Source: Mobula hypostoma
Lineage: Eukaryota
Reading direction: 5' to 3'
NCBI RefSeq assembly: GCF_963921235.1
Contig: NC_086108.1
Span: 71,178,001-71,242,000, forward strand
DNA length: 64,000 nt
Positions 2,570 to 60,876 of the stretch are shown piece by piece. The notes under the pieces were generated by a model. The model was not told the DNA's origin and did no database searches. It saw nothing but the letters and a program-made list of their open reading frames with translations. The number at the start of each line of letters is the position of its first letter. Within the stretch, counting starts at the first letter, position 1. Made by a program: the position numbers and the translations under genes.

Positions 2570-3075
2570 CAACACACACAAACTATTGAAGGAACTCACA
2601 GGTCAGGCAGCATCTATGGAAAAGAGTAAACAGTCAACATTTCGGGCTGAGACCCTTCATCATGACTGGGGAGAAAATATGGTCAGATAAAGAAGGTGGG
2701 GTTAGGGGAGGAAGAAGTATAAGGTAGTAGGTGATAGGTGAGGGGGAGGGGTGAAGTAGAGAGCTGGGAAGTCAATTGGTGAAAGAGATAAAGGGCTGGA
2801 GAAGGGGAATCTGATAGGAGAGGACCTTAGGCCAGGGAAGAAAGGGAAGGGGGAGGAGCACTAGAGGGAGGTGATGCGTGGGTGAGGAGAAAAGGTGAGG
2901 GGGAAATGGGAAATGGGAGGGCGGCAATTACTGGAAGTTTGAGAAATCGATGTTCATGCCATCAGGCTGGAGACTACCCAGATGGAATACAAATCCACCT
3001 TCTTTTTGCTTCATCTTAGCATACCTTTTCTACTCCTTTCACTGTGGCCTCAGCGTGATAGTAGAGGAGGCCACG
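2570..3075 (-). mobile_element. Penelope-like element 3' fragment (terminal repeat plus purine-rich tract)
   Basis: Co-linear with 12480-12970 of the longer Penelope-like copy. Confidence 0.8.
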
Positions 3076-4339
3076 GTGAAAGGAGTAGAAAAGGTATGCT
3101 AAGATGAAGTGGTAAGGTGGTGGATTTGTGCGGAGGGCAGGGGAGAACAGATAATCTTACTGTGCTGTAAACTGGGGTCTTGGCCGAGAGTACCTCCTAT
3201 GTCAATCTTTAAATTTTCCCTGAATCGTTCAGCTTTTCTAACAGAAGAATCAAATCTTGCAGGATCAGCACCAACAGACACATAGAAAGTCTGTCAGGTT
3301 TAATAACAATTGACGAGGTGTTACACTCAAACTTGTACACTCCAAATATTTCAGCTCAGTTTCAATTCTACCAGTGCTAACTGAAGAAATACTCACTGTA
3401 ACTCATGATACTGTACCCCCGTTACCATTCAACCACATAGAGTGCAGCTTCTGTTCGAAGCGGGTGCAATTCCCCCTGCTGTTTTCTGCATTGTCATCTT
3501 CTTTGGCTGTCATCCAGAAGTGAAACTGGCTTGTTTCAGCTCTAGTTTTATGGCTGAGGGGAAGCACATGCTCTTTCATTGAGGAAGCACGGAGGGTAGT
3601 TTGAGAGGTGATGAGGTGTGGTACCCCTTTCACTGTTTACATCGACCTGAGATTCTTAATACTATCCAAATTCTGCTTCTCCACTGGGCCAGGGTAAAAG
3701 TTGGGTACTTGTTTTTAAAAGGAGGCTTTAAAAAGGAATGTTATTGAACCTTTTCCTCTGTCCACCTGGTAATTTCTCCCCTTGCCTGAGCTTGGAATAG
3801 AGCAGTTTCAGGTGCTTGATTATGCAAACAAATCGGTCTCCCAAAAGGCAGCGGCTGAGTGTAACAACAGACTCGATGGTGGTGGGATGCTGGCCTGGCA
3901 TCAATTTTTTTCTCACCAGTAAATTTGGAGGATTTTACAGCGCCAGAATTGGTGGCATCCTGAGCGTCTGCTGTGTGTAGATAGTCCCAGTGTCATGCGT
4001 ATAGAGGAAGGTGAGGATCACTCCTGCTCTGTAGCCACACAAGTTTGTGCCAGGTCTGAAGTCTTTATCTACAAGTACTATTCTCTCAAATGACCAAAGT
4101 CTGGGCTGGTGTTTTGAATTTTGCCAATGACATATGCCTTTGCTGAGAGATGACTCCCACACAATAAGTGGTCCACATTTTTCACGATCTTAAACATTTA
4201 ATGCCAGAAAGCAGTGTTTTACAGCAGGAGCAAGTTTGCAGAGGAACTCAGCCTGGCAGACGTTGTGGAAGGTCCAACTTCATTTTGCTAACTGTACTGC
4301 AGCTGCAGCTCAAACATATTTCAATAATTGTATTTTTTA

Positions 4340-4590
4340 AATTTATTGAGATACGGTGCAGAATAGGCCCTTCAAGCCGCACCCTAGCTTAATCATGGGA
4401 GAATTTACAGTGACCAAATAACCCACCAACGGGTACATCTTTGAACTGAGAGAGGAAACCAGAGAACCCTGAGGAAACCCACACGGTCACAGAGAGAGAA
4501 CGTACAAACTCCTTACAGGCAGCGGTGGGAATTGAACCCGGGTCACCTGTACTGTAAGGTGTTGTGCTAACCATTACACTACCATGCCAC
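4340..4590 (-). mobile_element. tRNA-derived V-SINE (HE1-like)
   Basis: Minus strand has A box tggtgtaatggtta and B box ggttcaattcc, then the V-domain-like gtgtgggtttcctcagggttctctggtttcctc...caaagatgtacc. Confidence 0.75.
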
Positions 4591-4597
4591 CCAATAA

Positions 4598-5068
4598 CAG
4601 ACATCCCACCCTGCAAAAACTCATTTCAGGGAGGTAGCATCATCAATTTGCGGGAGACTTCCGGGAGAGGTGGGATATCTGCAATAGAGTAGCTCCTTAG
4701 CAGCTAGCCAGCTAGTTTAAATAATGTTAGCTATGCTAATGAACGAATGACACCTGTTAAACTCACCTCAACACGTCTTTTACAGTCTTAACCCACCATG
4801 GGTAATAGAAAAGTCACCGTTGCAAACAGTGCAGTGAGCAAAACTGTCATTATTTTTGACCCCTATTAGGCAGGGGTACACTTTAGTGTAGTCTGGGGTG
4901 ACGAATGTTTTATATTTTCTTTTTTTGGAACACTCTGCCATGGAGCTCTCTCTCTCTCTCTCAAAAAAAATTGATTTCCAGGATATTGTATATAATTTGC
5001 GGGCATCAGGGAGTCACTATCAATATGTGGGAGACTCCCGGAACTTCTGGGAGAGGTGGGAATGTCTG
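4598..5068. mobile_element. Non-autonomous DNA transposon (MITE-like) with terminal inverted repeats
   Basis: Left cagacatcccacc versus right ggtgggaatgtctg. caataa flanks both ends (4592-4597, 5069-5074). Internal copy of the right end at about 4650-4685. Confidence 0.65.
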
Positions 5069-5299
5069 CAATAATGACTGGTAGTTAGCCAACTTGCTCC
5101 AATAGGGTAAGGGGTAGGTAGACTGTAATGGCATATTTTAAACAAGCTAGCTCAAATCACCAAACACTGCAATTAAATCTGGAACACAAAAGTAAAGAAT
5201 CACCCATGACGAGGTTGAGTTGAAGCTTTCTAGAGTAATGATGCTAGGATGGCATATATAGAGTGGCAACTCAGAGCAGGTCTCAAACTGTTGGCTCTC

Positions 5300-5927: not shown

Positions 5928-5969
5928 TTATCGTATCCTTGTAAAAAGGTTAAGGACAGATTTGGATTC
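5928..5969 (-). CDS. fzr1: fzr1 coding exon 13 ([13 protein letters not shown]), IR tail
   Basis: Acceptor ttttttttcag, TAA at 5930-5928, C-terminal Ile-Arg tail typical of APC/C co-activators. Confidence 0.95.
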   Translation of the reverse strand, partial: ESKSVLNLFTRIR

Positions 5970-8900
5970 CTGAAAAAAAAAGTCAAACAATTAACTGTTT
6001 CAAGAAACATCTAATGCATGCACAAACTTCACATTCATATACTAAGGTTGGATACAAGGCAGCAATTCAATAAAGCTACAGATAAAATCTAACATAATTA
6101 AAAATTAAATTCAAGTGTATCAACTTCATTGATTTGCTGTGCATTGCTCCAACAACTTGTATTAAGCCAGCATGAAAAAGATTCAATTTATAGAACTGGC
6201 AAAATAAAAGACGGGTGGAGGAGAGGAATTTTAACAATTGGTCAAAAAAAAAGGGATGAATGGAAGAAACTGAGGGGGAAAATTAGAAAGGGAATCTATT
6301 TAGTGTGAAGATGATGGTAGCATGATCACCAGTTCTGGGATTAGCAGCTGTTCAGGAATCTGGAGTTAGGCGTATAAATACCAACACCTGAACAAATCCC
6401 ATTAATTTTTAAAGATCAGAGAACCAAGAGAGTCATGAAAGTACGTCTGAAATGGCCAGGAAACATTTACACTGTCAGCTTATAGCGGGGCAAGAATGTA
6501 GTTCAGTATTCAATAGTTTAGTGGGTGCAGAGTGGGAGGGGAATAAATCTCAGGCGAAGAACAAAGGGTCAGGGGGTAGGGCTGAAGCTGTTGGGTAGAT
6601 CGAGTCCATGTGTTGCCCATGTTCTGCTCTGAGAATGGGACGTTCAAGGAGAAAGGTAATTGCTGATGTATAAAGCAGCTAATTCCTTTAACTAATTCCA
6701 AAGGAAGTATATTATGTCCAACTAATCTTTCTTTTAGCCTACTGGGAAAATTTAACACTAATACTGTATCTGTAAAGGCTGAGCACGTATTCTTGAAACA
6801 TTTCTACGGTTCTGTGAAGTTGTTGTAGTTTTATGCATTTGGCTTCATCTAAAACTATCCTTAGCTTTCACAGAGTGTTATCAAACAAAACAGCAGTACT
6901 TGGCTGCACAAGGGCAGTTTACACGTGGAGTGTGTACTGCAGTACACATGGCCTCACTGACAATCAGTATATGCAATAGGTTACAAGGGAATATATAACA
7001 AAAGCACTGCTTCAGAAAATTCTGGATTTTGAGAAATGGCTGATGTCAGACCTTAGTACAAGCAGTTTTGCAAAAAAGCTTCCTCTATTAGATAACCAAA
7101 CTTCTAAAAATTGCTCCATTTAGTGTGAAGCCATGTGGCAAATGGAGGTTGAGAAAGGTACAATATAAGTGTTAGTGCCTCTCAAAAAATAGCTCAGCCG
7201 GAGAAGCAATCAGTCATTGGGCATCTAATAACGACCTTCAACTACCATGTGACTCTAAAGATAAAGACACATTCTTTTCAGCTAGATGGCAACAAAATTG
7301 CACACCAAACTTGTTTTGTAACAACAAACCGTCAACTTGAACACGTACCAGCTACTCAAGAAATCCTTGGTGATTTTCCTCAAAGCACAGACCTATGCTA
7401 ATAATGGACGGATCCCAAATACCCACTCAACTCTCTCGCCCAAAACCCAGATGGAACTTCAGGAAAGCCAACTGGGAAAAATTCACCTCGCGAGTCGACA
7501 ATTTGTGCAGCAGAATATCGCCCACCACCAAACCTTTCCACCCATTTCATAGACTCATGCTGAACTGCGCGAAAGAAGCAATAGTGAGAGGCCATCAACA
7601 AGAATACATTCCTTGTTGGTCTTAAAAAAAAGTGAAGAACTATTTCAAGGGTTTAAAACAACAGACAATACAACTACAGCTAATGATCTCCTCAAATCAC
7701 TCCGTAACGACAGACAAAATAGATGGATGGAAACTGTTGAAAACATGGAGCTCACTCACTCCTACATGAACCCTCCTCAAAAAAACTAGACCCCAACACA
7801 GCACCAAAGCAACAAACTAATTATCCAGTCGGTGCAGACACAGTAGCAAAATACATCAGACCAAGAAGAACACACACTCCTAATCATAAGTTCAAAACAC
7901 AAGTCAGATCCGAATACCAAAAACTTTGCATTAGCTCACTAGATGACGCACCTACATTTCCAATAACAGCAGCTGATGTAAAATCTGCCCTGCAAAATAC
8001 TAACTTAGCAAAAGCTGCGGCATTAACGATATCTATCCAGAAATGCTGCAACATCTCCGAGAAGGGAGTAACAAGTGGCTAACTAGTGCTTTCACTGATG
8101 TCATAACAAAAGGAAAATACCCTGACACCTGGAAATGTGCAAAGTCATTGCAATACCTAAACCAGGAAAGCCTGCGGATGATCCAGCAAGTTACCGGCCA
8201 AGTTCTCTCCTCTGTTGTACTTACAAACTTCTTTGGTGTGTTATTTTATCCAGAATATTATCTCTGATAGATCCTGACATAGATATTGAACAAGCTGGCT
8301 TCAGACATCACCACAATATAAGTGAACAAGGTCTCGCACTCACATCGTACATCAAATCAGGCTTTGAACTCAAAAATAAAACTGGAGCAATTTTTAATCG
8401 CTTTAACTGCTGCATATTACACCATTTGGAACCAAGGGTTAATGTTAAAACTAGTTTTAATGTAAAAACATCCTACATCTCCTCCACCGAATGACAGGCA
8501 CCCAGTCTTTCATCACTGGGCACCCAGCCTAGGAAGTGACACCAGTCGTATTACGTAATTCCACAATGGCGTTGTCCAAGGGTCAGTTCTTGCTCCTACC
8601 TTGTTCAATCTGTACCTCAGTGATCTCCCTGAAACCAAATCTGCTAATGTTAGATACATTGATGACTGGGCTATAGCCTTCCTATTGAATGATGTCAAAT
8701 CCATTGTGAAAATTCTTAGCCAAGATAACAACTCCCTATCCAACTACTTCACAAAGTACTACCTGATATGAATGACAACCAAACAGCAACTTCTATATTT
8801 CACCTGGACAACCAACTTACCAAACTTAAACTTAATATCAAACTAAATGACAGTTACTCAACAATCCACACCCAAAGTACTTAGGAGTCACACTAGACTG

Positions 8901-10932
8901 AACTCTCTCATACAAGATCCACCTTCAAAATGTTGCAAGAAACTAAAATCCAGAATGGTCACGATCAGGAAGATAGCAGGAACTAAATGGGGTGCTAAAG
9001 TCAGTCCTACGAACATCTAGCCTAGCACCATGTCTCTCAGCCACCGAATATTGCACACCCACCTGGGAGAGAAGTGCCCATGCAAACATCATCCATACAC
9101 AGCTGATTAGTTCTATGAAAATAATCCCAGGAGCCCTAAAATCCACACTGGTCTAACAGCTCCCAACAATGAGCGGAATAGCACCCCTGGAGATCCGTAA
9201 GAGAGCAGCTTCAGCAAAATTCTACAAACGTATCCAACATTCCAGTTTGCAAACCCATCGAAAATGCTCCTCCAACTTTCCGATTCGAATCCTGAAAACC
9301 TTTCTACAACTTGAAAACCCTCAGCTCCTATGGTGATCACAATGAATGGCACCAATCCTGGCACACCAATGTGCACCCCCCCCCGAGATCTGATCAGTAA
9401 CTCCACCTCACTCCTCCCGGGATTTACTACTGCTACCAGGAAAAACTGGACAGCTGCAAACAGATTCAGAAGTTGACATGCCAAAACAGTACGAGCACTA
9501 CACTGATGGGGTGCTCGACAAATCCCAGCTTGCCCCTGTGGTGCTCCAACCCAGGACATCCTCCACCTGGACTAAACATGCCCTCACCAAGATCCAAGGC
9601 AGCTTTGCCGTGGTCCATGGCTGGGGCCATGAGCTGGAGGAGCGGCTTGACAAAAAACAATTAGAAGTATGAAGAGAAAAGCACCTGCCATATGAAACAA
9701 CAAGTGTCTCCTTACGGCAGAAATCACAAGTACACAGAGATAGTTTGAAATGGGAGGAGTTAATTCATTTCAAAATATTGGGAATGGAGTAGACTTCCCA
9801 GGATTATTCTTTTTCCCCTTTAATAACTTATCCCAAATTAGACTGAAGTGCTATTATAGAAACAAGTTATAATCAAATTGATGCAAAAATAAATGACAAG
9901 TTGAAGAATCCGTTAGTCTTGCGAGACCATGGATCTGCGCCTGGAAAGTCTTCACTCTCCAGGGCGCAGGCCTGGGCAAGGTTATATGGAAGACCAGCAG
10001 TTGCCCATGCTGCAAGTCTCCCCTCTCCACAACACCAATGTTGTCCAAGGGAAGGGCATTAGGACCCATACAGCTTGGCACCAGTGTCATCGCAGAGCAA
10101 TGTGTGATTAAGTGCCTTGCTCAAGGACACAACACGTTGCCTCGGCTGGGGCTCAAATTCACGACCTTCAAGTCGCTAGTCCAATGCCTTAACCACTTGG
10201 CCACGTGCCCACAAGTTGAAGAATATGCAATGGGAAATTAAAAACATCTTTTCAATAACTAGTTACCAAAGTGTATGCTTTCCCCTAAAAACACAAGTTT
10301 ATTTATAAATCAATCAAATTGGGTGCCACGGTAACATAGTGGTTAGCGCGATGCTATTACAGCTCGGGGCAATACTGAGTTCAGAGTTCAATTCCGGCAC
10401 CATTCTGTAAGGAGTCTCTGTACGTCCTCCTGTGGAATGGGTGGGTTTTCGCCAGGTGCTCTGGTTTTCTTTCACAGCTCAAAGATGTACCGGGTAGGTT
10501 AATTCATCATTGTAAATTGTCCTGTGATTAGGTTAGGGTTAATCGGGTTTGTTGGGGGTTGCTGGGGCACCTTGGTTCAAAGGGTCATAAAGCACTGCTC
10601 CGCACTGTACAGCTAAATTAAAATAAAATTTTAAAAAATGTTTACAACACAACTCTGCTAGCAAATAACACTAAAATGCTTGATACCTTTGTAGAACGAG
10701 TTTTACTGAAAACGTTCCAAAACCGCAAAGTTTCATCTCCGGCACCTGTCACGATTGCCTCGCCATCTGGTGATATGGCCTAAAGATCAATGAAAGGGAA
10801 ATTTATTACCAACACTAAGTGGAAAATGCGCATCCACAGACATTATGTCCCACCATGACTCTAACTCAGAAAAACAACTTGATCTCCTGAAGTTTAGATC
10901 TGTAAGTTGCCTCATAAAGTTGGATAGGTACA

Positions 10933-10968
<36 letters not shown>

Positions 10969-13900
10969 CTGCATAAGGATATGCAAGACAGGTTTATGCC
11001 TCAGGAATGCTGTTTTATTACCTGCTTTCTGTAGCAATAGGAAACCAACCTTATGGCAGATTTTCTCAAATTATTTATCTGTTTCTTCTAATTTCAATAT
11101 AGTATGAATTGCTTATTTATGTTGATCAATTTTGGAAATATAAAATTAATTAATATTTTAAGTTTCTGCCATGCCGATAGATGTGACTGGAGTCTGCATC
11201 AGTTCTGGGAGAACACCATTTCCAATACTTCTCTAAATGAAGCAATGCTCGTTCACCCACTGTTTAAAGAAAATTGTTCAGGCTGTGTGAGAGGGAAGAA
11301 TCTCACATCAGATTACCAACTGGAATGTAAAAAGGAAAATATATTCTTTTCAGTCCTTGAGATAAATAAACATCTGTTAAGCGTAAGTGGGGAAAAAGAA
11401 GATTTTAAAAGTAAAAGCATTAACATAAGTGCTATTGTGACTCAGTCTCACTGTCGAACAGTCTGTTGCTCACTGATAGAGTGCCCTCTGCCGGTTGTGT
11501 TCAGAATCCATGCCTGGACACCAACTGCTTTGAAAATCATTCATTCAGAATTAATTTTAGGGATGGATTGCTCTCTGCCTATAAACAAGGCAGGGGAACA
11601 AAGCTGCTACAGGAGTTTGAAAAGACAACTGTGAAGTCAACTGTTTTCCTCATTTATCTTTTCACTGGGGGGGGGGTGGTCTCATTGAAATCTTTCGAAT
11701 GTTGAAAGGCCTAGACAGAGTAGATGTGGAAGGGATATTTCCCATGGAAGGAGAGTCTAGGACAAGAGGGCACAGCCTCAGGATAGAGGGGCACCCTTTC
11801 AAAACAGAGATATGGAGAAATTTCTTTAGTCAAAGGGTGGTGAATTTGTGGACTGTATCACATGCAGCTGTGGAGGCCAGCTCGCTGGGTGTTTTTGAGG
11901 CAGAGATTGATAGGTTCTTGATTGGACATGTCATCAAAGGTTACGGGGAGAAGGCTGGGAAATGGGGTTGAGGAGGAGAAAATAAAACTAACAGCCATGA
12001 TTGAATGGCAGAGCAGGTTCGATGGGCCAGATGGCCTAATTCTGCTCCTCTGTCTTATATTAAAAAAATGCAATAGAGAAAGGGCCAGGGAGTGAGAGAA
12101 ATAAAATTTACAATGACATGATTTACTTTTGTGCCAAGTAACCTTTTACATAAAACTACATGTAACAGATGAAAGCTTACGACAGCAAATATCCCTCCTA
12201 CAACAGGTATTCATTTCACACATAATATCTAACATTTTCAATCAAAATACACATCAATGAACATTAAGCAACTTAGAATAGAAATCACTTTGCGAATAGG
12301 CACAGAAGTTTAAGAACTGAACACCACAATGTGTTATTACAAGTCAATTAAGCCATGTACCATTTTGGATTGCCTGGAAATAACTTGAGCCTTTTACGTT
12401 GAAAATAATCATAACTGAGAAGCAGAGTCAGTCTCTTAGATCACAAACAAGAGAAAATCTGCAGATGCTGGAAATCAAAGCAACACACACAAAACGCTGG
12501 AGGAACTCAGCAGGCCAGGCAGCATCAATGGAAAAGACTTCCAATGTCAATGCTTCAGGCTGAGACCCTTCATCAGAACGGGAGAAAAAAGATGAGAATT
12601 TGGTGTAAGAAGGCGGGGGGTGGGGGAGGAGGAAACACAAGGTGAGAGGTGAAACTGGAAGGGAGAGGGGTGAAGTAAGGAGCTGGAAAGTTGATTGGTG
12701 AAAGAGATTCAAGGGCTGGAGAAAGGGGAATCTGATAAGACAGGACAGAAGGCCATGGAAGAAAGAACATGGGGAGAAGTACCAGAGGGAGGTGAGGTGA
12801 AAAGGAGAGAGAGGGGAATGGGAATGAGGAATGGTGAAGGGGTATGGGGGCATTACCGGAAGTTCAAGTTGTCAATGTTCATGCCATTAGGTTGGAGGCT
12901 ACCCAGATGGAATACAATGTGTTGTTCCTCCAACAGGAGTGTGGCCTCATCGCGACAGTAGAGAAGGCCATGGATGAACATTTCGGAATGGGAATGGAAA
13001 GTGAAATTACAGTAGGTGGCCACGAAGAGATTGTGCTTTTACTGGTGGATGGAGCAGGGGCGTAGGTGCTCAGCAAAGTGGTCTCCCAATCTACACTGGG
13101 TCTCGCAGATATACAGGAGGCCACACTGGGAGCACTGGATACAGTACATGACTCCAAAAGACTCACAGGTGAAGTGTCGCTTCACCTGGAAGAACTGTCT
13201 GGGACCCTGACTGGTAGTGAGAAAGTAGGTGCAGGTGTAGCACTTGTTCTGCTTGCAAGGGTAAGTGCCAGGAGGGAGATCAGTGGGGAGGGACGAATGG
13301 ACAAGGGAGTTGTATAGGGAGCAATCCCTGTGGGAAGCAGAAAGGGGGGGGGGAGGGAAAGACGTGCTTGGTGGTGGGATCCTGTTGGAGATGGCGGAAG
13401 TTATGGAGAATTACATGCTGGATGCCGAGGCTGGTGGGGTGGTAGGCGAGGACAAGAGGAACCCTATTCCTGGTGGTGGTGGCGGGAGGATGGGGTGAAG
13501 GCAAATGTGTGTGAAATGGAAGAGATGCAGTTGAGGGCAGTGTTAATGGTGGAGGAAGAGAATCCCCTTTCTTTGGAGGAGGAGGACATCTCCTTCGTTC
13601 TGGAATGAAAAGCGTCATCCTGAGAGCAGATGCGGCGGAGACGGAGGAATTGAGAGAAGAGAGTGGCAGTTTTACAGGTAACAGGGTGGGAAGAGGTATA
13701 GTCCAGGTTGCTGTGAGAGTCAGTGGGTTTATGATAGACATCAGTAAACAAGCTGTCTCCAGAGATAGAGACAGTGAGATCAAGAAAGGGAGGGGAGATG
13801 TCGGAAATGGACCAGGTAAATCTGATGGCAGGGTGGAAGTTGGAGGCAAAGTTGATGAAGTCGACGAGCTCTGCATGGGTGCAGGAAGCAGCACAAATGC

Positions 13901-16900
13901 AGTCCTCGATGCAGCATAGGAAAAGTTGGGGAGTGATACCAATGTAGGTGTGGAACATCGATTGTTCCACTTAGCCAACAAAAAGACAGGCTTAGCTGGG
14001 CCCATGCGAATACTACACCTTTTGTTTGAAGGAAGTGGGAAGAGCCAAAGGAGGAACTATTGAGAGTGAGGACAAGTTCCACCAGACGGAGGAGAGTGGT
14101 GGTGGAGGGGAACCGGTTGGGTCTGGTGTCCAGAAAGAAACGGGGAGCTTTGAGGCTTTCCTAGTGGGGGATGGAGGTGTGTAGGGACTGGACATCCATT
14201 GTGAAAATAACATGTTTGGGGCCAGGGAACTTGTAATCATTGAAAAGATCAAGGGCGTGTGAAGTGTCACGGATGTAGATAGGAAGGGACCAAACCAGGC
14301 TGGAAAAACTGAGTCAAGGTATGCAGATACGAGTTCAGTGGGGCAGGAGGAAATTGAGACAACGTGTCTACCTGGACAGGCAAGTTTGTGGACCTTGAGT
14401 AGGAGGTAGAAACAGAAGGTGTGGGGTGAGGGAACTATGAGGTTGGTAACAGAGGATGGGAGATCCCCACAGTGTGGGAGACAAAGGCTTGATGCTCCTT
14501 AGTGGGATCCTGTTCAAGGCGCAAGTAAGAGCAGGTGTCTGACAGTTGTCGCTGGACCTCAGCAAGGTAGAGATCAGTCTGCCAGATTACTAAGCAGCCT
14601 CCTATCTGTGGGTTTTGATGGTGAGGTTAGAATTAGTGTGAACAGCGTGGAGGACATCTGGAGGGAGTGAGGTTGGAATTGGAGAGGGGAGTGGTGAGGG
14701 TTGAGACTGTTGATGTTCCATCGGCAGTTGGCAATAAAAAGATCCAGAGCAGGGTGTCCAGCAAGAGGAGGAGGGTTGAAGACAGGAGAAGGGGTCATCT
14801 GTGGGGGTGGAGAGTCCTCGCCAAAGAAGTAGGCTCGGAGACAGAGCCAGCGGAAGGAGAGCTCAGTATCACGGCGGGTACGGAACTCACTGAGGTGTGC
14901 GTGCAGGGGGACAAAGGTGAGACCTTTACTGAGGACAGAATGTTCTGCATCAGAGAGGGGAAGGTCAGAGGGAATGGAGAAGATCACACAGTTTTATAGA
15001 TTGTGATAAATTCAACTGAGAAGTTACAGCATAGTCTCCGAATACTGCACTTTCTTTGCACTGTAATTAAATATTACAGTCACCCATATTTACACACTGT
15101 GCTTACAGTTGTTATACTTTTTGTCAGTAACAATTGATTGGTGGAGAACCATTCAAAATGTTAAAACACTTACCAGGTACAGCACTCTATATGAATGTCC
15201 TGTCAGTTTGGCAACTTGTGTTAAGGATGGATATTTCCACACTAAGATTTGATTCTGGGAATAGCCATGTGTACTAACCTGGAAAGTAAAGCAGAGTCAC
15301 AACAAACTTGAACAGAAGTGAAACAATGATAGACTTTAATTAGAAATAACCTTGCTTCAAAAGAGACTGATTCAAGTAAAAGTCAACTGAAAGCTGGCAA
15401 GCCACACAACACTTTTATTGGCTATATAAACATATTCATCACCTGATGCCCTTCAACCATAAGCTCCTTGAAGCCATACAATTTGGCTCCAATACTTTAT
15501 CCTCGGCTGTACAATTATCTTTTATTTTGCTATAAACATCACAATGCAAGCTTTTCAAAAGAGCAGTTCAGCTGTAAAGCAGGCATTGCAATCCCAGATG
15601 ATGCCTTTAATGGGCACCACATGCAAAAACAAGAATTAAACAAAAGGTTTTGCAGCTTTTTTACAAGGTTACTGGAGAAAGCTCCAGAATTTCAAAAATA
15701 TTGGTGTTAACTTTAGTTTGCTTGCTAAATGCAATAAGCTTCAGAACAGAGTAAGCTGGGACTCATTGTAACTGCTTGAAGACTACCAAGTTTCACCTTG
15801 AAATCATGAACACTTGTACTCTATTAGTTATTATTATATCTAGAACCAAACAATCATGAGCAGAGAAGATGCAGGAGGGTTGGATAGAAGAATGAGAAAG
15901 ATCTTCGATAGGACAGGGTCAGAAGACCACGTGCTCTGCTGCCCAAAATGAACATTTCTTTTTTTGTCCCCCAGTTCCAATGAAGGGTCCTAAACCTGAA
16001 ACATTAACTGTTTCTCTCTTCCCAGATGCTGAAAGTTTCCTGACCTTTTTGTATTTATTCAGACTTTCAGCATCTGCAGTTTAAAATTTTTTTTTTCACC
16101 TTATCTTATGGACACTGCCATCTGCTGCTACAAAGGTTCTATGTAATTTCACAGGGAGCAAGGAAAATAGGAAAATAGATTGTTAAAATCCCAAGTCTGA
16201 TATTCAAGGATAAACTGTGAAATCTCTTGAACTCTACCATCTCGAGTCAGAGAGCACTACAACACAGAAACAGGCCTGGCCCTTTGGCGCACCTGGTCTA
16301 TGCTGAACTCTTATTCTGCCTTGTCCCATCCATCTGCACCTGGACCATAGCCCTCCGTACCCCTCTCAACCATACACTTACCCAAATTTCTCTTAAATGT
16401 TGCAATCAAAGCCACATCTACCACTTCCACAGGCAGCTCACCCTCAGGTTCCCCTTCCACACTTAATGGATGAACCATGAGTTCTTGTCTCACCCAACCT
16501 CAATGTAAAACGACTGCTTGCATTAACCCTATCTATGCCACTTATAATTTTATATACCTCTGTCAAATCTCCCCTCATGCTCCAGGGAATAATTTCCTAA
16601 TCTCTTCAACCTTTTCCTATCGCTCAAGTCCCAGCAAAATCCTTTGAGTGCCAAGTCCACAATGATGAGATCTCTCATCACAGTGGCAGAGCTGACAGCA
16701 TTGCTGCTGCACAGGTATGGTCCAGATCAGATTCTGTCTGTGTGCATATTCTCGCTATGGATTACCCATGTACTCTGCATGTCAGAAAGAACAGGTTGTG
16801 GGGGGGGGGAAGGGGGAAGGACTGGTTGGAAAATTCAGTGCTGGCACAGGCTCAATGGGCTGAACAGCCTCATCTGATTTGAAGAAAATGTGAAGTCTAC

Positions 16901-19900
16901 CACAAGTATAAAGGACACAGACTGTGCTTCCCAGAGAGTTAAAGTGCTTGGTATTCTGAAGACATAATAGAATAAATAAATCCACTCTAAGATCATCGTC
17001 AATATGAATGACGTGCAGAAGAAAACAAATCTTTATTCCATCATTTCCTGTCCAGGCTAACCGAATATGTGCATGCACATACGTCGCTCACTGGATTTAT
17101 TACTAATATACTGCAGATTTAATTTGTCATAGCTTTCAATGTTAGAAGCTTACCAGTTCATTTGCGTGCTTTGACCACGCAAGATTGCAGACTTGGGAGC
17201 CGGTGTCAACGCACTGCAGTGGCTGACAGGTTAGTGTGTTCCAGAAACGGATGCAGCGATCCGCAGTGCCCCCTCCCGAAGCCAGGAGTCCGTGTTGATG
17301 AGGGGACCACGCGATGGCTTTTACAGCTGCTAAGTGTTCTGTGTACTGTTGGACTGGGCTCAGACTGGAATTGTTCCACACAAACAGCTGAAAAAAGAAA
17401 ATATGTTGCAGCCGTAATACAAATATAATCAACAACTTTAACCTCACAGAACTTTACATCATAACACAACTTGACAAGTTCCCAATGAACTTTCATCCAC
17501 TCCTCACTCAAACTGGTAGTCATCTAGCTAATTGAACAGAAGTACACCATTTCATCTTTCGGCAATTTGCCAACCATTCATTTAATTCCTTCATTATATG
17601 GGTGCAAGACCATGCCACTAAATTCCGTTTTACAGCTCTCGCAATAGTACCAACCCTAGACGGCAGTGGAATGCGTGTGAGGTACCTTGTTGTCGTTGCC
17701 GCCGGAAGCCAGGTGCTGGTGGTCAGGGGACCACTTTAACCCACAAACTTCCTGCCTGTGACCTTGTAACCGGCGCTCTGTCTGAAGTGGGGGTGTTCGT
17801 ACGTCTCGCTGCAGAATCAGACGGTCCCGACTACCTGATGAAAGTTGATCAGCATTCCAGGCCAAAGCCCCTGCACATCAAGCAACACTGCATTAAAAAA
17901 ACATTAGCAGTTGTATAACTAATCATTTAGTCCCCTAATACTCTCATTTCAGAACCATTTAAGCAACAATAACCTCATTTACTCAAAGGCAACATGTTGT
18001 TAAAAGCTGTGATGGTAGCAATAACAGACAACTGAAGATCAAAATACATCAGCACTAAACACAGATCTTAAACTCTCCTTTGAAATGTGTTCATGGATTT
18101 AACAGTGTCATAAGAATTTCTATTTTAAGCAGTTGTTGCTAACCCTGTCCTCCTGAAAACACAGACCTTCAATAAAAAAAAGCGTAGCAACTAAAATCAA
18201 ACAGCCCTGCTCTTCCTGGACAATATACATTTTGTTGGATTCCTAAATCTCCATGATTAACAATGCCATTTTAGTCCACATAACCTAATATCATTAGATC
18301 ACCTTTCCACATCTGTACACTTTTATAACAACACGTTTTAAAGCCCTGGTACAATCACAGAAGGACACAAAGGATTCCTTGGACCTTTTGCAGAGAGAGG
18401 TAGTAGCATCACACCACCTCTCCTCATCATATTTACCTCAATCGATAACACCAAAAAAACAAATCAGAGCAGGCTCATCACAAAATGCCTGCCCCACTTC
18501 CTATGACAATTAATCAGAATCACATTTAATATCACCGGCATGTGTCATGAAATTTGCACTTCACTGCACTTCAGTGGTTTAAAATTGCTTGAAGATACTC
18601 AGATAGCGTGGAGGCACAAGCCCCTCTCTCCATTTCTTTAATCCTGATTGAGAAGTTACAGAACCTGGGCCTCTGTACCTCCCTCTGCAATTGGATGCTC
18701 GCCTTCCTAACTGGAAGATCACAGTCTGTGTGGATTGGTGATAACATCTCCTCCTCACTGACGATCAACACTGGCGCACCTCAGGGGTGTGTGCTTAGCC
18801 CACTGCTCTACTTTCTACATACACATGACTGTGTGGCTAGGTATAGCTCAAATACCATCTATAAACTTGCTGATGATACAACCATTGTTGGTAGAATCTC
18901 AGGTGGTGACGAGAGAGCGTACAGGAGTGAGATATGCCAACTAGTGGAATGGTGCCGCAGCAATAATGTCAGTAAGACAAAAGAGCTGATTGTGGACTTC
19001 AGGAAGGGTACGATGAAGGAACACATACCAATCCTCATAGGGAGATCAGAAGTGGAGGGAGGGAGCAGTTTCAAGTTCCTGGCTGTTGAGATCTCTGAGG
19101 ATCTAATCTGGTCTCAACATATCGATGTAGTTATAAAGAAGGCAGGACAGTGACGATAATCAAGGAGTTTGAAGAGATTTAGCATGTCAACAAATACACT
19201 CAAAAACTTCTATAGGTGTACCGTGAAGAGCATTCTGACAGGCTGCATCACTGTCTGGGTGGGGGGTGGGGGGGGCTACTACACAGGACCCATGGAAGCT
19301 GCAGAGGATTACAAATTTAGCTGGCTCCATCTTGGGTACTAGCCTGCAAAGTAAAGTGTCTCAGAAAGGCAGTTTCCATTATTAAGGACTTCCAGCACCC
19401 AGGACATGCCCTTTTCTCACTGTTACCATCAGGTAGGAGGTACAGAAGCATATATATTGCATTGAACTGCTGCTGCTAACTAGTTTCATGACACACGCCG
19501 GTGATACTAAACCTGATCCTTGATCTGCTGATTTGTCCAATCTCACTCAATCACCCAAAATGGACCTCAGGAGATGGTACAAAGCTAATATTATTTCTAC
19601 AATATACAGTTACTTAGCTGTTCATCTTTCTTCCAAGGTTACACAAGACATACAGTTAAAAAACAAAATCCCACAGTGGAGGGTTATCTACAATTCTACA
19701 AGGACAGTTACATTACAGCAGTTCACTTAGTTCCTTAAATCAGTTTTATAATTTTAGCTAAATCAAAGATTGTTATTTGTAAACCTTGCCTAACTAAAAT
19801 CTATCAGACTTCACGTTGAAACTTTTAATTGACCCTCGGGGAGGCGGGATGAAAGAGAGGAAAGGAAACTCCAGATTTTCATTTCCCTTCTGAGGAGGAA

Positions 19901-44145: not shown

Positions 44146-45475
44146 ACACACACAAAATGTTGGAGAACTTAGCAGGTCGGGCAGCATCTATGGAAATGTA
44201 TAAACAGTCAACGTTTCAGGCCAATACTCTTCATCTGGACTGGAAAGGAAAGGGGGAAGATACCAGAATAAGAAGGTGGGGGGAGGGGAAGGAGGACAAG
44301 CTAGAACTAGATAGGTGAGGCCAGGTGCGTGTGGGAGGGGGAGGGATGAGGTAAGAAGCTGGGAGGTGATAGGTGGAAAAGGTAAAGGGCTGGAGAAGAA
44401 GGAATCTGATAGGAGAGGAGAGTGGACCATGGGAAAAAGGGAAGGAGGAGGAGCACAAGGGGGAGGTGATAGGCAAGTGAGGAAAAGCGGTAACAGGTGA
44501 GAGTGGGAAACTGAAGAAGCTAGAAGGGGCCAGGTAAAATACTGATCATGCCATCAAGTTGGAGGTTACCTTGATGGAATATGAGGTTTGCTCCTCCAAC
44601 CTGAAGGTGGCAGAAGAGGCGGCCATGGATTGACATGTCAGAACAGGAGACTGTGATCCCTGTAGAAAGCAGAGAGTTGGGGTGGGGGGCTCTCTCTGTA
44701 ATTTCCTTGCCCATTCATCCTTCCTGGCATTTATCACTGCAAGTGGAAGAAGGGCTACAACTACCCATTCACTTCCTCCCTCACCTCTATTCAAGGCCCC
44801 AAACAGTCCTTCCAGGTGAGGCAGCACTTCGCCTGCAAATCTGTTGTGATTGTCTACCGTATCCAGTGCTCCTGATGCAGCCCCCTCTACATTGTTGAGA
44901 CTCAACATAGATTGAGGTCTGCTCTGTTGATCACTTCCTGCAAAAAGTGGGATTTCCCAACGGCCAACCATTTTAATTTCAATCCCCATTTCTGTTCTGA
45001 CATGTCGGTCAACGGCCTCCTCTTCTGCCACAATGAGGCCACTCTCAGGTTGGAGGAGCAAAACCTCATATTCCGTCTGGATAGCCTCCAAGCTGATGCA
45101 TGAATATTGATTTCTCAACTTCTGTTAATTTTTTTCCCTTCCCACTTCTACCTTCTTCAATTCTTCATTTTCACCTCTTCTCCTATCACCTCCCTCTGGT
45201 GTCCCTCCTCTTTTCTTTTCTCCCACAGTCCATTCTCCTCTCCTATCAGATGCCTTCTTCTCCAGTCTTCACCCAACACCTTCCAGCTTGTCCTTCTCCT
45301 CTTCTCCCACCTTACTCTAGCATCTTCCCCCTTCCTTTTCAGTCCTAATGCACAATCTCTGTCTGAAATGTCAACTGTTTATCCATTTCCACAGATGCTG
45401 TTGGACCTACTGAGTTCCTCCAGCATTTTGTGCGTGTGGCTCTGGATTTCTAGCATGTACAGAATCTCGTCTGTT
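44146..45475. mobile_element. Penelope-like insertion with inverted architecture (minus part 44146-44640, plus part about 44690-45475)
   Basis: 15-bp TSD taggatttacgagca (44131-44145) and taggatttatgagca (45476-45490). Terminal repeats point outward at both ends, with a GIY-YIG remnant inside. Confidence 0.85.
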
Positions 45476-46246
45476 TAGGATTTATGAGCATCTGGATAAG
45501 CACAGTCTGATGAGGGACAGTTTGCATGTCTTTGTGCGGGGCAGGTCATGTCTCAGGAGCCCAAATGAATTCTTTGAGGAAGTGAGAAAACAACTTGAAG
45601 GTGGAGCAGTGGATGTGGGGTATATGGATTTTAGTAAGAAGCTTGATAAGATTCCCCATGGTAAGCTAATTCAGAAAATCAGGACTCATGGGATCCTGGA
45701 ATACTTGGTTGCGTGGAATTCAGAATTGCCTTGTCCACAGAAGGCAGAGGGACGGAGTGTATTCTGCCTAGAGATCAATGGCCAGTGGTGTTTCACAGGG
45801 ATCAGTTCTGGGACCCAAGCTCTTTGTGATTTTTATGAATGACTTGGATGAGGAAATGGAAGGGTAGGTTAGAAAGTTTGTAGATGACAAGACTGGTGGT
45901 GTTGTGGATAGTTTCGAAGTTATAACTTTCTACAAGTTTCAACAGGACATCGATAGGATGCAGAGCTGGACTGAGAAATGGCAGATGGAGTTCAATGTGG
46001 AAAATGGTGAAGTAATAAACTTTGGAAGGTCAGACTTCAAGGCAGAGTACAAGGTTAATGGTAGGATTCTTAGCAGTATGGATGAACAAAGGGATCTTGG
46101 GGTGCATGTCACAAAGTTGCTGCACAAGTTGATAGGGGGTTAAGAAAGTATATGATGTGTTGCCCCTCTTTAGTTGGAGGACTGAGATTAAAAGCTGTGA
46201 GGTAAAGTTACAGCTCCATAAAACCAGTTATATCACATTTGGAGTA

Positions 46247-47969
46247 CAGGTGTCCCCCGCTTTTCGAACGTTCACTTTACGAAACCTCACTGTTATGAAA
46301 GACCTACATTAGTACCCTGACAACACGCTGGAGGAACTCAGCAGGTCGGGCAGCATCCATGGAAACGTCGACTCATCGTTTCCACGGATTCTGCCCGACC
46401 TGCTGAGTTCCTCCAGCGTGTTGTGAATGTTGCTTTGACCCCAGCATCTGCAGATTATTTTGTGTTTACATTAGTACCCTGTTTTCGCTTTCAGAAGGTG
46501 TTTTCACTGTTACGAAAAAAAATTCAGTGCGCGATAAAAGGCAGCGCGCCCCGAGCAGCCGCTCTCCCCCGGATTCGGAACGGCTTTGCTTTAACACGTG
46601 CCTGTGAGCAGCTGTTTGCAAGATGAGTTCTATGGTATCGGAAAAGCCTGAAAGAGCTCATAAGGGTGTTACACTTACGGTAAAACTAGACATAATTAAG
46701 TGTTTTGATCGTGGTGAATGAAGTAAGGACAACGTGAGTTTGGCTTGTGGAAGCTGACGAACATCATGTTGAAGAGGTTTTGGCATCCCATTACCAAGAA
46801 CTGCCAGATGAAGAGCTGATGCAATTGGAAGAAAAAAGTATAACAATCGAAACCGAATGAGTAATGATAAAGTACGACTTTAATCTTGAAAGGGTACGTC
46901 GGTTTAGGGGATATTTGCAGGATGGTTTGAGTCCTTATTAAAGAACTGTGTGATAGAAAAATGCGCGAGGCTCAGCAGTCAAGCAAGCCTTCCACATCAG
47001 CCACAGCAGACGACGAACCTCGACCTTCGACATCGAGGCGGGCAGAGATAGAAGATGAGCTGCCTGCTCTAATGGAAACAGGCGACGAGATGACACCCCG
47101 GTGTCCCACCACCCCAACCCCCAGGCCATGGACAGATACCGATTTGCGGAGAATGCAAAGGTAGCTGGGAGGTACACAGCACATCTTTAAGAAAAAAGCC
47201 AAAATAAAAATGCTAATTAATTAGGTGCCGCCAACATGTAATTGTCGGCCCAGATCAGAGACGACGCAATCGGAAATCGGCACTGATCTGGGCCGACAAT
47301 TATGGGCGGCACCTAATTAATTAGCATATTTGTTTCGGCTTTTTTCTTAAAGATGTGCTGTGTGCCTCCTGGCTACCGCTGCACCCCTGCGTTCTTCGCG
47401 GTAATGTATCGCTCAGCGGGTAGGAGGGTGGGGGCCACTGCACCATCCCAGCCTGCGACGACTCAGTCTAACACACCACCATCAGTGTACTCTGCGCTGT
47501 CTTCCCAATTCCAGTAAGTGATACTACACTGTACATACATTATTTCTACTTTATATATGCTGTGTATTTTTATGTGTTATTTGGTATGATTTGGCAGCTT
47601 CATAACTTAAAGGTTACTGGAGAGCGCTTGCGCGTGTTTCTGCTGAGAGTGCTTGCATGAGATTTTCTGCCGACGGCGCCTGCGTGCAATTTTTGCTACG
47701 GAGAGCAGTGCAGTAATGATTGTGGAAAAGTATTTCTACTTTATATAGTCTGTGTATTTATCATATCATTCCTGCTTTTACTATGTGTTACTGTTATTTT
47801 AGGTTTTATGTGTTGTTTGGTATGATTTGGTAGGTTATTTTTGGGTCTGCGAATGCTCACAAAATTTTCCCATATAAATAAATGGTAATTGCTTTTTCGC
47901 TTTACGACATTTTGGCTTGCGAACCGTTTCATAGGAACGCCCTACCTTCGGATGGCAGGGAGAAACCTG
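46247..47969 (+). mobile_element. Tigger/pogo-like (Tc1-mariner) non-autonomous DNA transposon
   Basis: TA TSD (46245-46246, 47970-47971), imperfect TIRs caggtgtcccccgc / gcagggagaaacctg, transposase remnants KGVTLTVKLDIIKCFDRGE (CENP-B-like HTH) and EEVLASHYQELPDEELMQLEE. Confidence 0.82.
46320..46466. mobile_element. Short fold-back Penelope-terminus element nested in the Tigger-like element
   Basis: 15-bp TSD tacattagtaccctg at 46305-46319 and 46467-46481; about 45-bp inverted arms around GAAACGTCGACTC. Confidence 0.88.
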
Positions 47970-53613: not shown

Positions 53614-53660
53614 TACAAACGTATTACGTATTATAAACGTATTATAATACAAACGTATTA
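53614..53660. repeat. Short tandem duplication (aatacaaacgtatta / acgtatta units)
   Basis: Four acgtatta cores in 47 bp. Confidence 0.7.
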
Positions 53661-57760: not shown

Positions 57761-57920
57761 ATAATGTAATTTGGACAGAAAGGGCTGTTTTCTTTGTACA
57801 GCTGGCTACATAAACAAATTCTTCTTATACTTGGGAAACCTGGGAAGAAAACAGAAAATCTGTTCCATAAATCATAGAAATATTACTATAGTTATATTTA
57901 ACCAACAATTCAAGTTCATC

Positions 57921-58030
57921 CAACACACTTCAAAGTTGCTGGTGAACGAAGCAGGCCAGGCAGCATCTCTAGGAAGAGGTACAGTCGACGTTTCAGGCCG
58001 ACACCAGAATTCCTGTTGTTAGCGTTTTAA
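57921..58030 (-). mobile_element. Short Penelope-terminus element with 14-bp TSD
   Basis: TSD aattcaagttcatc at 57907-57920 and 58031-58044; minus strand has ggcctGAAACGTCGACTG. Confidence 0.8.
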
Positions 58031-58639
58031 AATTCAAGTTCATCTTTGAGAGTATTCGATACCTTGTATAAATATGGTTTCTCCATGCGATACATGCTTA
58101 CTGCAATATGCTTCTGTAAACAGCTTGTTTCATGCTGAAACTTGCCATTTCCTCACTGGTTTTCTAATTGACAATGACTGGCTCTTCCATTCCACATCGT
58201 TCAACAGCACCAATTGCATTTTTATTGCTTCTTTAACAAGAAGAAAACATACAAAGATTCCACACAAAAGAATAATCAGACAAAGGCAGATGAACAGTTA
58301 GCAAATGCCAAGAGCTTGGTCAAAGAGAAAGGTTTTACTAATGAACCTACAGAAGAGAGGAAGGTGGAGGCAGAGATTTCCTGTGTGTGAAGCCTCAACT
58401 CAATGTGTGTGTGGGTTTCCAAGTCCCATTTTGCTCTGCAATTGAATTATTGCTCAGTCAGCTTATTCTTCAAACACAATCACCCAATTTGAGCCAACCA
58501 CTTGTATTCATATAAAAATTTCTCTATAACATATTTACTCATAAGAGGTAATGATGTATTGATGCATTGATGTATTTCCTTAATATTACTATTAGATCTC
58601 ACAAAAAGAAAAAGAAAAAGCTTGTCCCATGTACAATGG

Positions 58640-58935
58640 AACATCCTTAGCATACAGTGAATTGTGTGTTGGCATCAAATCAAATCAGCAAGGTTGTGCT
58701 GGGTAGCCTGCATTTGTTAACATGCTTCCGGCGCCAACAAAGCATGCCCACAATCCACTAACCCTAACCGTAGGTCTTTGGAATTTGGGAGGAAATCAGA
58801 GCACTTGATAGAAACCCATGCGGTCATGGGGAGAACCTACAAACTCCTTATATAGGCAATGTCAGGTACTGATCCCGGATTGGTGATTGCTGGTGTTCTG
58901 GCAGCGTTATGCTAACCACTACACTATTATACCAC
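58640..58935 (-). mobile_element. V-SINE variant
   Basis: tctttggaatttgggaggaaatcagagcac...gaaacccatgcggtcatggggagaacctacaaactcctt...gctaaccactacact. Confidence 0.7.
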
Positions 58936-59427
58936 CTGATATTTAATTCAAACTAAAAGTTCACTGAAAACTTCCAAATGATTTCAACTGCCAACCTTAT
59001 ATAATTACAATAGCCTGGGGTACAAAGTTAAACATTATTCAGACCAAAGGCAACTAACCAGGACCGCTACTAGGGTTAGAAAAGAATAGCTGTGTCAGCA
59101 CATCACTTCTACAAAAATAAGCAAACTTGCACTTTTATCTCTCCAGGTAACTACAAGCCCACAGCACAAGTGCAATATACTTGGGCAGGCTTACGCAGAA
59201 AGATGACAAGGAGAATTGGCTTGTGAAATTGCAATGACTCATACTGGCAAAATTGCAGTGTCCTTAACAAAGACACAGAGAACTTCACCTTAAGGTAACC
59301 ATGTGGCTACATATGAAGTACTCCAAAGAGAATGCAGTATATGAGTGAAGAATTTTTAATGAGGGGGGTTTTGGGCAAAGTGTTCCAAACCTGAAGATTT
59401 TCCTCAGAGTGGATATCTATTTCTAGG

Positions 59428-59528
59428 GCACAAACAAGAGAAAATCTGCAAGTGCTGGATATCCGAGTAACACACACAAAAATGCTAGAGGAACTTCGCA
59501 GGCCAGGCAGCATTTTGTGTGTGTTGCA
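59428..59528. mobile_element. Short fold-back Penelope-terminus element
   Basis: cacaaacaagagaaaatctgca...aacacacacaaaatgct / agcattttgtgtgtgttg inverted arms. Confidence 0.7.
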
Positions 59529-60652
59529 CCTACTTTTAGGGAACTTGAAGGACACCTGAAGCTGATGAACCAAGTTCAAGGTGAGAGGAAAAGAATGTCT
59601 ATGTTGGTTCTCACTCTAGGATATGTCTTCCCATACCCATGGGCCAAGGAGCAAATGCAGATAACTTAATCTATTAAATTAATATAGTTTAGCCTACTTG
59701 TTCCAGTTGTCATTATGCTCACATTCCTGAGAAGATACAAATACAGGACAGAAAAGATCACAGGCATTGAAGCCATGCATGATATCTGGACCAATAAAAT
59801 AATTATCAAGATGAAACTGAGGGTACATGAAGATGGAAATATCATCTACCTCATAATTTTCGTGAGGCATGGTAAACTAGAGACAATATAAATGCATCGA
59901 ACCTGTGAAAATCTAGGCACAAACAAAACTTTGTGATCTTCTAAGACGCAGGATGGATGAACTACCAGAAAGTCAAATGCTGCAACTTGAATAGGTATGT
60001 GGATGACTTCTACAAAGCCTCCCAAAAACACATTTGCTACCCTCCCTAGACAGCAAGACAAAAGGAAACACAGAAGGAGAACAGCAATCATAGCTACTCC
60101 AAAACAGAACTCCAGCCTCTGCCACCACCTTGCTGAGAGGTATTCTCTTTTTTAAAAAAAAATATTTTTATTTGGATAAGGTATAAGTATACAATCTTTT
60201 CACATGTATAACCTTTTCCATTTTTTATATATGTATAGATCTATAATTATTTATACATTCACAAGTACACATTGAGATGATATAAAAAGTAATTAGGCAC
60301 TTAAATAGATAATTATGTGCAGTTGTAATTCCACTCTACTAGACTAAGTATTGATAATGGTTGTAAAAAAAAGTAATAATAGTGGATTAATAATAATTTC
60401 CATTTATCTCTTCTGGACCATTTCTTTCTGGTCCAAAATATTGTATGTAACCCTATCTAACTTCCATCGTAGGTGTTTAACTGCAAGGTATCTCAATGAA
60501 GAGGAGGGTATGAGACACTGAACAGCACAGAGGAAAGTACTACATATCCCACAGGCATCACTGGGATATGTACGGCAAATCAATGCCTAGGACAGGTTGG
60601 TTGACACAGAAGAAAGCAGAAACCTCACAGATTCATAGGAACCCGAGTTCAA

Positions 60653-60876
60653 TCACAAACAAGAGAAATTCTGCAGATGCTGGAAATCTGAGCAACACGC
60701 ACAAAATGCTGGAGGAACTCAGCAGGTCAGCCAGCACCTGTGGAAGAGTACAGATGATACTTTGGGCTGAGAACCTTCAGCAGAACCCTACTAAAGGGTT
60801 TCAGACCAAAACGTTGACTGTACTCTTTTTCATAGATGCTGCCTGGACTACTGAGTTCCTCCAGCATTTTGTGTGT
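60653..60876. mobile_element. Fold-back Penelope-terminus element
   Basis: Arms of about 80 bp (cacaaaatgctggaggaactcagcagg / ctgagttcctccagcattttgtg), with decayed hammerhead remnants head-to-head at the centre. Confidence 0.8.

Follow-up and report, generated by a model that had tools for sequence, protein, structure and literature searches.

The 64,000-nt stretch of the Mobula hypostoma genome analysed here (the window; NC_086108.1, positions 71,178,001 to 71,242,000) contains the coding exons of fzr1 together with many copies of a small hammerhead ribozyme motif, which is carried by the pseudo-long terminal repeats (pseudo-LTRs) of a Penelope-like retrotransposon. Analysis of insertion ends in this family revealed that the 5' ends of young copies avoid the cut site of the ribozyme and peak at the start of its stem I, accompanied by target-site duplications; the copied templates were thus probably continuous across the cut site. 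We consider it rather probable that the motif cuts slowly, and only as a pair or together with protein, and that new insertions are copied from RNA that is whole at the cut site.

Positions in the motif are counted throughout from the cut site, 0 being the first base 3' of it. A first set of young insertions comprised every distinct copy, 98 in total, that matched a 30-nt anchor (+8 to +37) exactly in L061 to L146, the first 5.3 Mb of one contig. Their 5' ends lay at or beyond -311, reaching the open reading frame (ORF), in 39 copies, at -284 to -53 in 22 and at -47 to -8 in 35, of which 22 were inverted; the two remaining ends, just past the cut, look like one duplicated event. Since target-site duplications of at least 9 nt were found in 28 of the 35 short copies, far above the rate for shuffled pairs (65 of 676), we regard the short copies as primary insertions. 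A second set, for which the anchor was loosened, random stretches were added and each head-to-head pair was counted once, held 135 events. Here the rate of stops per base was 1.8% at -40 to -24 (32/1787) versus 0.15% at -7 to +7 (3/2005; p 4e-8). Further upstream, at -125 to -41, it was at most 0.58% (35/5984; p 8e-6 against -40 to -24), this control being inflated by 11 false ends that the ungapped end-caller made near -80 at a C run. Furthermore, the longer arm ended at -35 to -29 in 8 of 11 head-to-head pairs.

The same distribution was seen genome-wide with end patterns that demand non-element letters before the given base. The raw end share was 3.1% at -31, the first base (G) of stem I (1,217 ends), 0.85% at -36 (297) and 0.77% at -44 (418); near the cut, at -4 to +5, it was 0.15% per base (945 of 62,425). 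Corrected for filter passage, the share rose to 10.7% at -31 and 0.42% near the cut. Among the first 30 of the 945 near-cut matches, 22 were inverted or fold-back structures, 6 internal deletions, 1 a duplication and only 1 a plain end, near +1 (a script flagged 19 inverted copies and the 6 deletions; the other 3 inverted copies, the duplication and the plain end were read by eye). A 5'-end peak at the cut site is hence rejected, the ends there being rare and, among those examined, nearly all non-plain. By comparison, the first 30 of the 1,217 ends at -31 included 18 plain and 12 inverted ones, and 22 had a target-site duplication. In contigs assembled from two DNA sequencing runs (organisms A and B, one of which may be the source of this genome), the best-supported loose ends on the 5' side lay at -32 and -31, the -32 class being mixed with the different upstream sequence of an older subfamily. 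Two raw-read DNA runs from other organisms yielded no matching reads. Among the matches listed at -31, a G stood just 5' of the junction in 55 of 100 (by eye; about 30 expected); this is partly due to inverted arms or re-copied motif letters, and the rest may be untemplated additions. Other causes of the peak fared poorly. Pausing before the folded motif was rejected, as it should leave ends on the 3' side of stem I, the very place with the lowest rate; the cDNA hairpin is weak (about -4 kcal/mol); the peak does not coincide with an initiator-like A at -36; and no captured common first exon preceded -31 in the 30 copies examined of the 1,217.

A scheme that would produce these ends can be outlined as follows. 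The element protein would bind the tail and start reverse transcription there, and synthesis would copy through the uncut ribozyme, stopping in about one third of events at or just past its 5' edge and so leaving inserts of motif plus tail of 95-135 nt. A free cDNA end may then re-prime on itself via 3-4-nt matches, for instance the GTC/GAC of stem I, giving the head-to-head pairs. The stop at the edge could arise if RNAs begin there (from a promoter in solitary pseudo-LTRs, or where an exonuclease stops) or if the enzyme is released once the motif has been unwound. Cleavage would remove templates or serve a later step, rather than make template ends. In the anole element PAc the hammerhead depends on protein, the substrate used in vitro is mainly uncut RNA, and two start sites of reverse transcription give the tail (PMC11167929). 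Palindromic junctions, self-priming and the promoter and intron of Penelope are described in the text of PMC3846280 and PMC2377424.

The majority letters of young and old clusters give the consensus core C3-U4-G5-A6-N7-G8-A9, G12-A13-A14-A15, U16-H17 in type-I order; CUGANGA, GAAA and the pairing of stem I, whose loss was named beforehand as refuting a hammerhead, are all kept. The motif runs from a 5-pair stem I through CUGANGA, one extra A, a stem II of 4 pairs closed by a loop of 4 nt, and GAAA to C-G-U-C and the cut site. The GGG/CCC (or AGG/CCU) stem II of a preliminary description, made from the window alone, is to be corrected to four pairs (G-C, G-C, G-C, U-G) with a 4-nt loop, preceded by an unpaired A. 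The ACGU palindrome proposed there as stem III is real, but as A15.1-C-G-U16.1 has no loop, stem III is possible only between two copies. The consensus aligned by eye in that description is genuine: its 31-nt core has 1,217 exact genome matches (593 forward, 624 reverse) and none for the reversed pattern. Pair tables of 213 older copies contain stems I and II, the extra base between A9 and 10.1 and the loopless palindromic 15.2-16.2; at 10.1-11.1 they have GC in 104 and GT in 69, with even CpG decay. The anatomy, including the placement in Penelope terminal repeats, is that of the published minimal hammerhead ribozymes of metazoan Penelope-like elements, for which the text of PMC4209133 gives the type-I order, the full core, the extra base after A9, a highly conserved G10.1-C11.1 (here in older subfamilies), the palindromic 15.2-16.2 without loop III, location in both pseudo-LTRs and mostly solitary truncated copies. 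Judged by its sequence, then, what the pseudo-LTR of this Penelope-like retrotransposon carries is a hammerhead fold of the minimal type-I class, a kind known since Cervera and de la Pena (2014). A single copy without loop III is predicted not to fold actively alone, and the modelled motif would cut only slowly, as a pair or with the element's protein; for Schistosoma, the same text reports no cleavage of a single motif in vitro and low cleavage of dimers. The proposed check with the Rfam hammerhead models gave no match in the window, nor in three loci with intact copies (L337, L049, L229), at E values up to 10, and the weak Rfam matches are hairpins formed by inverted copies rather than hammerheads.

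Several variants of the motif were seen on the way. The core change A6>C occurs in 20 of the 213 older copies, perhaps as a natural core-variant subfamily (in the window at 41754-41791(+) and 60749-60786(-)), and U4>A in 6. In L297, and in three more among 100 matches listed near the cut site, the body of the hammerhead is cleanly missing from an otherwise whole pseudo-LTR, the gap extending from the GTC triplet of stem I to that of the cut site. A pyrimidine tract plus AG lies immediately 5' of stem I in all subfamilies (L337:1240-1262, minus strand; in the window 44243-44275(-)), and the young subfamily has a branch-point-like stretch 5' of stem I. No spliced form was seen, and contigs of three further runs contained no intron-like joint ahead of stem I, which speaks neither for nor against splicing.

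The carrier is a Penelope-like element, as had been proposed, and, to judge from its coding sequence, an endonuclease-bearing one. Its unit of about 3.5 kb consists of motif, tail, ATG, an ORF for reverse transcriptase and GIY-YIG nuclease, pseudo-LTR, second motif and tail, with the ATG about 135 nt past the cut site of the first motif. Locus L337 holds an unbroken 1016-aa ORF between two direct motifs, with YIDD, a C-x4-C-x2-C linker and GIY-YIG; its domain matches are weak (RVT_1 E 2.6e-5, GIY-YIG E 0.001, both below the Pfam cut-offs) and it has 313 homologues with reverse transcriptase and nuclease domains. The CxxxxCxxC linker and the two C and two H of the nuclease are present both in L337 and in the window remnant, and among named homologues of the protein the one from Chiloscyllium punctatum is the closest (72%). 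The linker fits the Neptune clade as PMC8557442 defines it in its text. The genome has 812 exact ORF-start matches. Read by eye, the 3' ends of copies lie mostly at about +60 or +100, that is, at two tail sites, and pseudo-LTRs from partial tandems, inverted 5' pieces and an optional 30-40-nt tail were all seen among family copies. Full-length-type copies at L200 and L201 share a common tail deletion of about 30 nt, L162 lacks the second tail part before the ATG, and full-length copies at L333 and L335 carry additional motif copies, short or inverted, in a stack at one of their ends, making three or four motifs per locus.

Of the 10 loci fetched around ORF starts, 6 have the ORF between two identical direct motifs at a distance of about 3.51 kb, and such an arrangement is expected under the processing proposed by Cervera and de la Pena, in which the two motifs of a tandem precursor are cut as a pair, the unit RNA is ligated or circularised and the reverse transcriptase crosses the re-joined site, giving copies of more than unit length. 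In 30 ORF-start copies read by eye, 17 reach beyond -75, upstream of the first motif's cut site, as this processing would have it, 6 end at -55 to -27, 2 at -9 and -7, and 5 at +25 to +105. The core letters, which agree with the consensus in young and old subfamilies, and the missing 5' ends at the cut, which a circle predicts, are also in its favour. However, it gives no reason to expect a peak at the 5' edge of stem I, read-through tandem RNA accounts equally for the more-than-unit copies, and the anole element needs no cleavage in vitro. Moreover, none of the 30 copies begins at the cut site, whereas cut RNA in linear form should have left a few such ends. We regard this processing as unlikely to be the source of the insertions and prefer copying from RNA left whole at the cut.

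The family is very large, as had been anticipated. We sampled 60 stretches of 10 kb (600 kb) at round coordinates on 17 contigs of the 3.48-Gb genome; a core profile found 148 modules in them and none in the reversed control, corresponding to about 860,000 modules genome-wide (725,000-1,007,000). An intactness descriptor (complete core, at least 3 pairs in each of stems I and II, palindromic 15.2-16.2) was passed by 20 of the 148 modules and by none of the reversed control. Exact intact 34-mers number 45,139 genome-wide, with control counts of 0. This copy load is among the largest hammerhead loads that we found reported for one genome.

Most of these 34-mers belong to the youngest and most abundant subfamily, in which G10.1-U11.1 is fixed: 38,661 exact copies have this pair and 6,478 the canonical G10.1-C11.1. 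In 167 young copies positions 11.1-12 read TG in 114, CG in 44 and CA in 6, yet in the same copies the CpG is preserved at three other sites in 139, 132 and 140 cases; these counts indicate a fixed G-U pair, and CpG decay is rejected as its origin in the young subfamily. In the 213 older copies the site does decay evenly, and there CpG sites go to TG and CA alike, in agreement with the CpG decay that had been suggested for the window copies. The TG copies are slightly younger than the CG copies (3.3% versus 4.0% from their own majority), both motifs of L337 carry G10.1-U11.1, and the C form makes up 25% and 20% of read depth in runs X1 and X5. The computed energy of the stem II hairpin is -5.1 kcal/mol with G-C and -2.5 with G-U, and that of the active double hammerhead -16.7 and -11.5; a duplex in the form of an inactive rod, in which the core GAYG is computed to pair with CGUC, reaches -30 to -34. 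We would expect the G-U pair to slow cleavage.

Since G10.1-U11.1 and C7 favour the inactive rod in the calculations, the fold might no longer be catalytic in the youngest subfamily and persist because the protein uses it as an RNA handle, or because it serves as a promoter or splice-acceptor region, with the 5'-end peak as a transcript start. The pyrimidine tract plus AG directly before stem I points the same way, the intron of D. virilis Penelope ending at helix I according to the text of PMC4209133, as do 6 of the 30 examined -31 copies, which abut the target-site duplication without an extra base. Yet even among the youngest copies the majority retains every core letter at its position, the peak is not at the initiator-like A, the -31 ends share no first exon and full-length copies do not show the peak. 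Loss of catalysis therefore appears quite unlikely to us.

Retention of a slow ribozyme and copying of uncut RNA leave room for the takeover, because a weaker variant could win the latest expansion if cleavage removes templates or serves a later step. Taken further, tens of thousands of young copies might preserve, in their insertion ends, an in vivo record that the limits of the copied RNA are not set by Penelope hammerheads, that the reverse transcriptase passes the cut and stops at the 5' edge of the ribozyme, spawning the 95-135-nt inserts, and that cleavage is a brake on the element, the weakened G-U subfamily having outgrown the canonical one sixfold; we put this wider view forward only tentatively. 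A number of points weigh against our interpretation. The peak is a broad hump, from -55 to -8, and the 98-copy sample is confined to 5.3 Mb of one contig. The corrected shares at -36 (4.0%) and -44 (2.4%) have denominators estimated from 35 sample copies. ORF-start copies have none of 25 ends at -35 to -29, versus 21 of 122 tail-anchored events (p 0.025), so one fixed RNA 5' end cannot account for all classes. A template that was cut and re-ligated, or a circular one, likewise leaves no end at the cut, which makes uncut and re-joined RNA inseparable in these data. Nearest-neighbour energies ignore the tertiary core, and although G10.1-C11.1 is the most conserved pair after 15.1-16.1, hammerheads with U10.1-U11.1 are active according to the text of PMC3088659. 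Finally, stem covariation between subfamilies, which are closely alike in sequence and so limit its signal, is weak: only 2.1-1.1 gives one (odds ratio 4.3, p 0.0045; 13 U-A copies), and age is a confounder there.

Motifs of this class, and their association with Penelope, have been known since 2014, and the end distribution and the G-U takeover are the parts that we did not find in print: our literature search, which covered listings and main texts (the supplements of PMC4209133 may list the motif), returned no report of either. Compared with the main text of PMC4209133, which names no cartilaginous fish and counts about 9,000 motifs in Xenopus and 4,000 in the coelacanth by another method, we find 45,139 exact 34-mers, a 4-pair stem II and G10.1-U11.1 in the dominant subfamily. 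Hammerhead retrozymes have already been found in one cartilaginous fish, according to the text of a preprint (10.64898/2026.07.22.740005). The Poseidon element PAc of Anolis carolinensis (Frangieh et al. 2024, PMC11167929) resembles ours in the hammerhead near the ORF start, the two start sites of reverse transcription in the tail after the hammerhead and the uncut RNA template; its ATG, however, lies inside stem II, Poseidon lacks the CxxxxCxxC linker, and the evidence there comes from in vitro reactions as opposed to genomic insertion ends. With Neptune, as characterised in the text of Craig et al. (2021, PMC8557442), the element shares the C-terminal GIY-YIG with CCHH, the CX2-5CxxC linker, partial tandems, inverted 5' pieces and the optional 30-40-nt tail; in contrast, its insertions have 9-17-nt target-site duplications in non-microsatellite DNA, and its placement in the clade is putative. 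The non-LTR retrozymes of animals, as presented in PMC7229834 and the above preprint, are likewise short non-coding hammerhead-bearing derivatives of Penelope pseudo-LTRs, but the short inserts here are single or head-to-head 95-135-nt units rather than head-to-tail arrays. The role of the ribozyme for the element is still called unclear in the text of PMC8557442. This family makes the question testable at scale, with more than 60,000 young copies giving base-level insertion-end statistics, and its intact ORF copies and two natural variants differing at one conserved stem II position offer an in vivo test bed.

In the window itself, each of the 11 places listed in the preliminary description holds the motif or the part of it ascribed to that place, on the strand given, but 44205(-) and 45340(+) belong to a single inverted insertion, of which each forms one arm, and a head-to-head partner of 60787(+) at 60749-60786(-) had been missed. 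The core profile has 18 matches in the 64 kb, about one per 4 kb and not one per 6 kb as estimated earlier; a profile built from four window copies has 17, including tail-only hairpins and the second arm at 60749-60786. No window copy passes the intactness descriptor, which agrees with the earlier remark that none is fully intact, and the window copies are dead relics. The largest, at 12438..14983(-), is a 5'-truncated Penelope-like element with a decayed reverse transcriptase, CxxxxCxxC linker and GIY-YIG (12856-14990), pseudo-LTR with hammerhead, and tail (77% identity over 2648 nt to the intact L337 unit; tblastn E 2e-178). It lies in sense orientation inside an intron of the fzr1 coding region, and its hammerhead (12545..12582(-)) is broken by A15.1>G and loss of stem I. 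A pseudo-LTR copy at 2497..2913(-), 3.3 kb past the last fzr1 coding exon, contains a hammerhead at 2631-2668 with C3>A, U15.2 and U17, and a nuclease-end piece of the element lies nearby at 2931-3020. The fzr1 introns also harbour an old short antisense copy at 15963..16045(+), whose hammerhead (15972-16010) has a broken core, and a short sense copy of hammerhead plus tail from stem I at 25288..25392(-), with core letters kept, stem I broken and U15.2-G. A similar short copy from stem I at 41754..41861(+), with A6>C, U15.2 and U17, is the closest to intact in the window; it lies upstream of the first coding exon of fzr1, in antisense orientation to that gene. The strongly decayed old head-to-head pair at 33574..33687 retains a hammerhead remnant at 33650-33687(+). 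The single inverted insertion at 44071..45516 is composed of a pseudo-LTR (44071-44500(-)), an inverted nuclease piece (44711-45122(+)) and a second pseudo-LTR (45149-45516(+)); its hammerheads are 44205-44242(-), with U4>A and a stem II mismatch, and 45340-45377(+), which is broken. A fold-back hairpin at 46305..46480 comprises the hammerhead 3' half (46362-46374) and tail, with a 15-nt target-site duplication, and a young-subfamily short copy at 57911..58025(-) is truncated within stem II; it has a small piece of tail in inverted orientation and its target-site duplication measures 14 nt. At 60648..60876 two hammerheads, 60749-60786(-) and 60787-60822(+), both broken, are joined head-to-head at their stem I 5' strands. 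Tail-only hairpin insertions of the Penelope family, without hammerhead, occur at 490..644 (11-nt target-site duplication) and, resembling it, at 59421-59538. No head-to-tail tandem array of non-coding hammerhead units, as in retrozymes, was found in the window.

The placement of fzr1 on the minus strand was confirmed by 13 coding exons within 5931..41023 (tblastn limits, approximate): 41023-40952, 33158-33024, 32038-31952, 25939-25811, 24654-24565, 23517-23284, 21389-21306, 20221-20114, 17874-17683, 17390-17148, 15278-15171, 10779-10663 and 5972-5931. One of them is identical to the protein of Scyliorhinus torazame and also to those of sturgeon, paddlefish and bichir. The minus-strand copies had been described as lying sense within fzr1 introns; this holds between coding exons for 12545(-) and 25355(-) only, two of five, while 2631(-) is past the last coding exon and 44205(-) and 57982(-) are upstream of the first. 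Both of these sense copies are broken, the latter by stem I and U15.2-G, and cutting of the fzr1 pre-mRNA, raised earlier for an intact copy, is therefore unsupported; the window copies likely have no effect on fzr1. More generally, sense intronic copies could cut host pre-mRNA, fzr1 included, and so act on host expression. By sampling, the genome holds about 116,000 descriptor-intact copies (95% range 71,000-179,000), many of which must be intronic, and Xenopus retrozymes are reported in the preprint text as depleted in introns. Against this stand the state of the window copies, the missing loop III of a lone copy and the single minimal motifs left uncleaved in vitro in the text of PMC4209133, and we deem such an action on host genes very improbable. 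Strand agreement of neighbouring intact copies, used as a proxy for intron orientation bias, gave no signal at low power (52 of 98 equal; 99 of 100 strands among the matches listed).

Other repeats share the window with the Penelope family. A second dispersed family at 4372-4593, 27669-27805, 49908-50122, 55624-55842 and 58775-58938 is likely a tRNA-derived short interspersed element, the tRNA match at 4517-4588(-) being very weak. Decayed pieces of reverse transcriptase of the long interspersed element type (RVT_1 matches) were found at 8126-8494, 18593-19450, 37966-38513 and 56414-57745. Long inverted repeats occur at 47154-47383 (79 nt, 90%) and at 2989-3129 (63 nt, 89%), the latter adjoining the nuclease-end piece of the element, and a purine-rich low-complexity tandem tract lies at 54213-54387.

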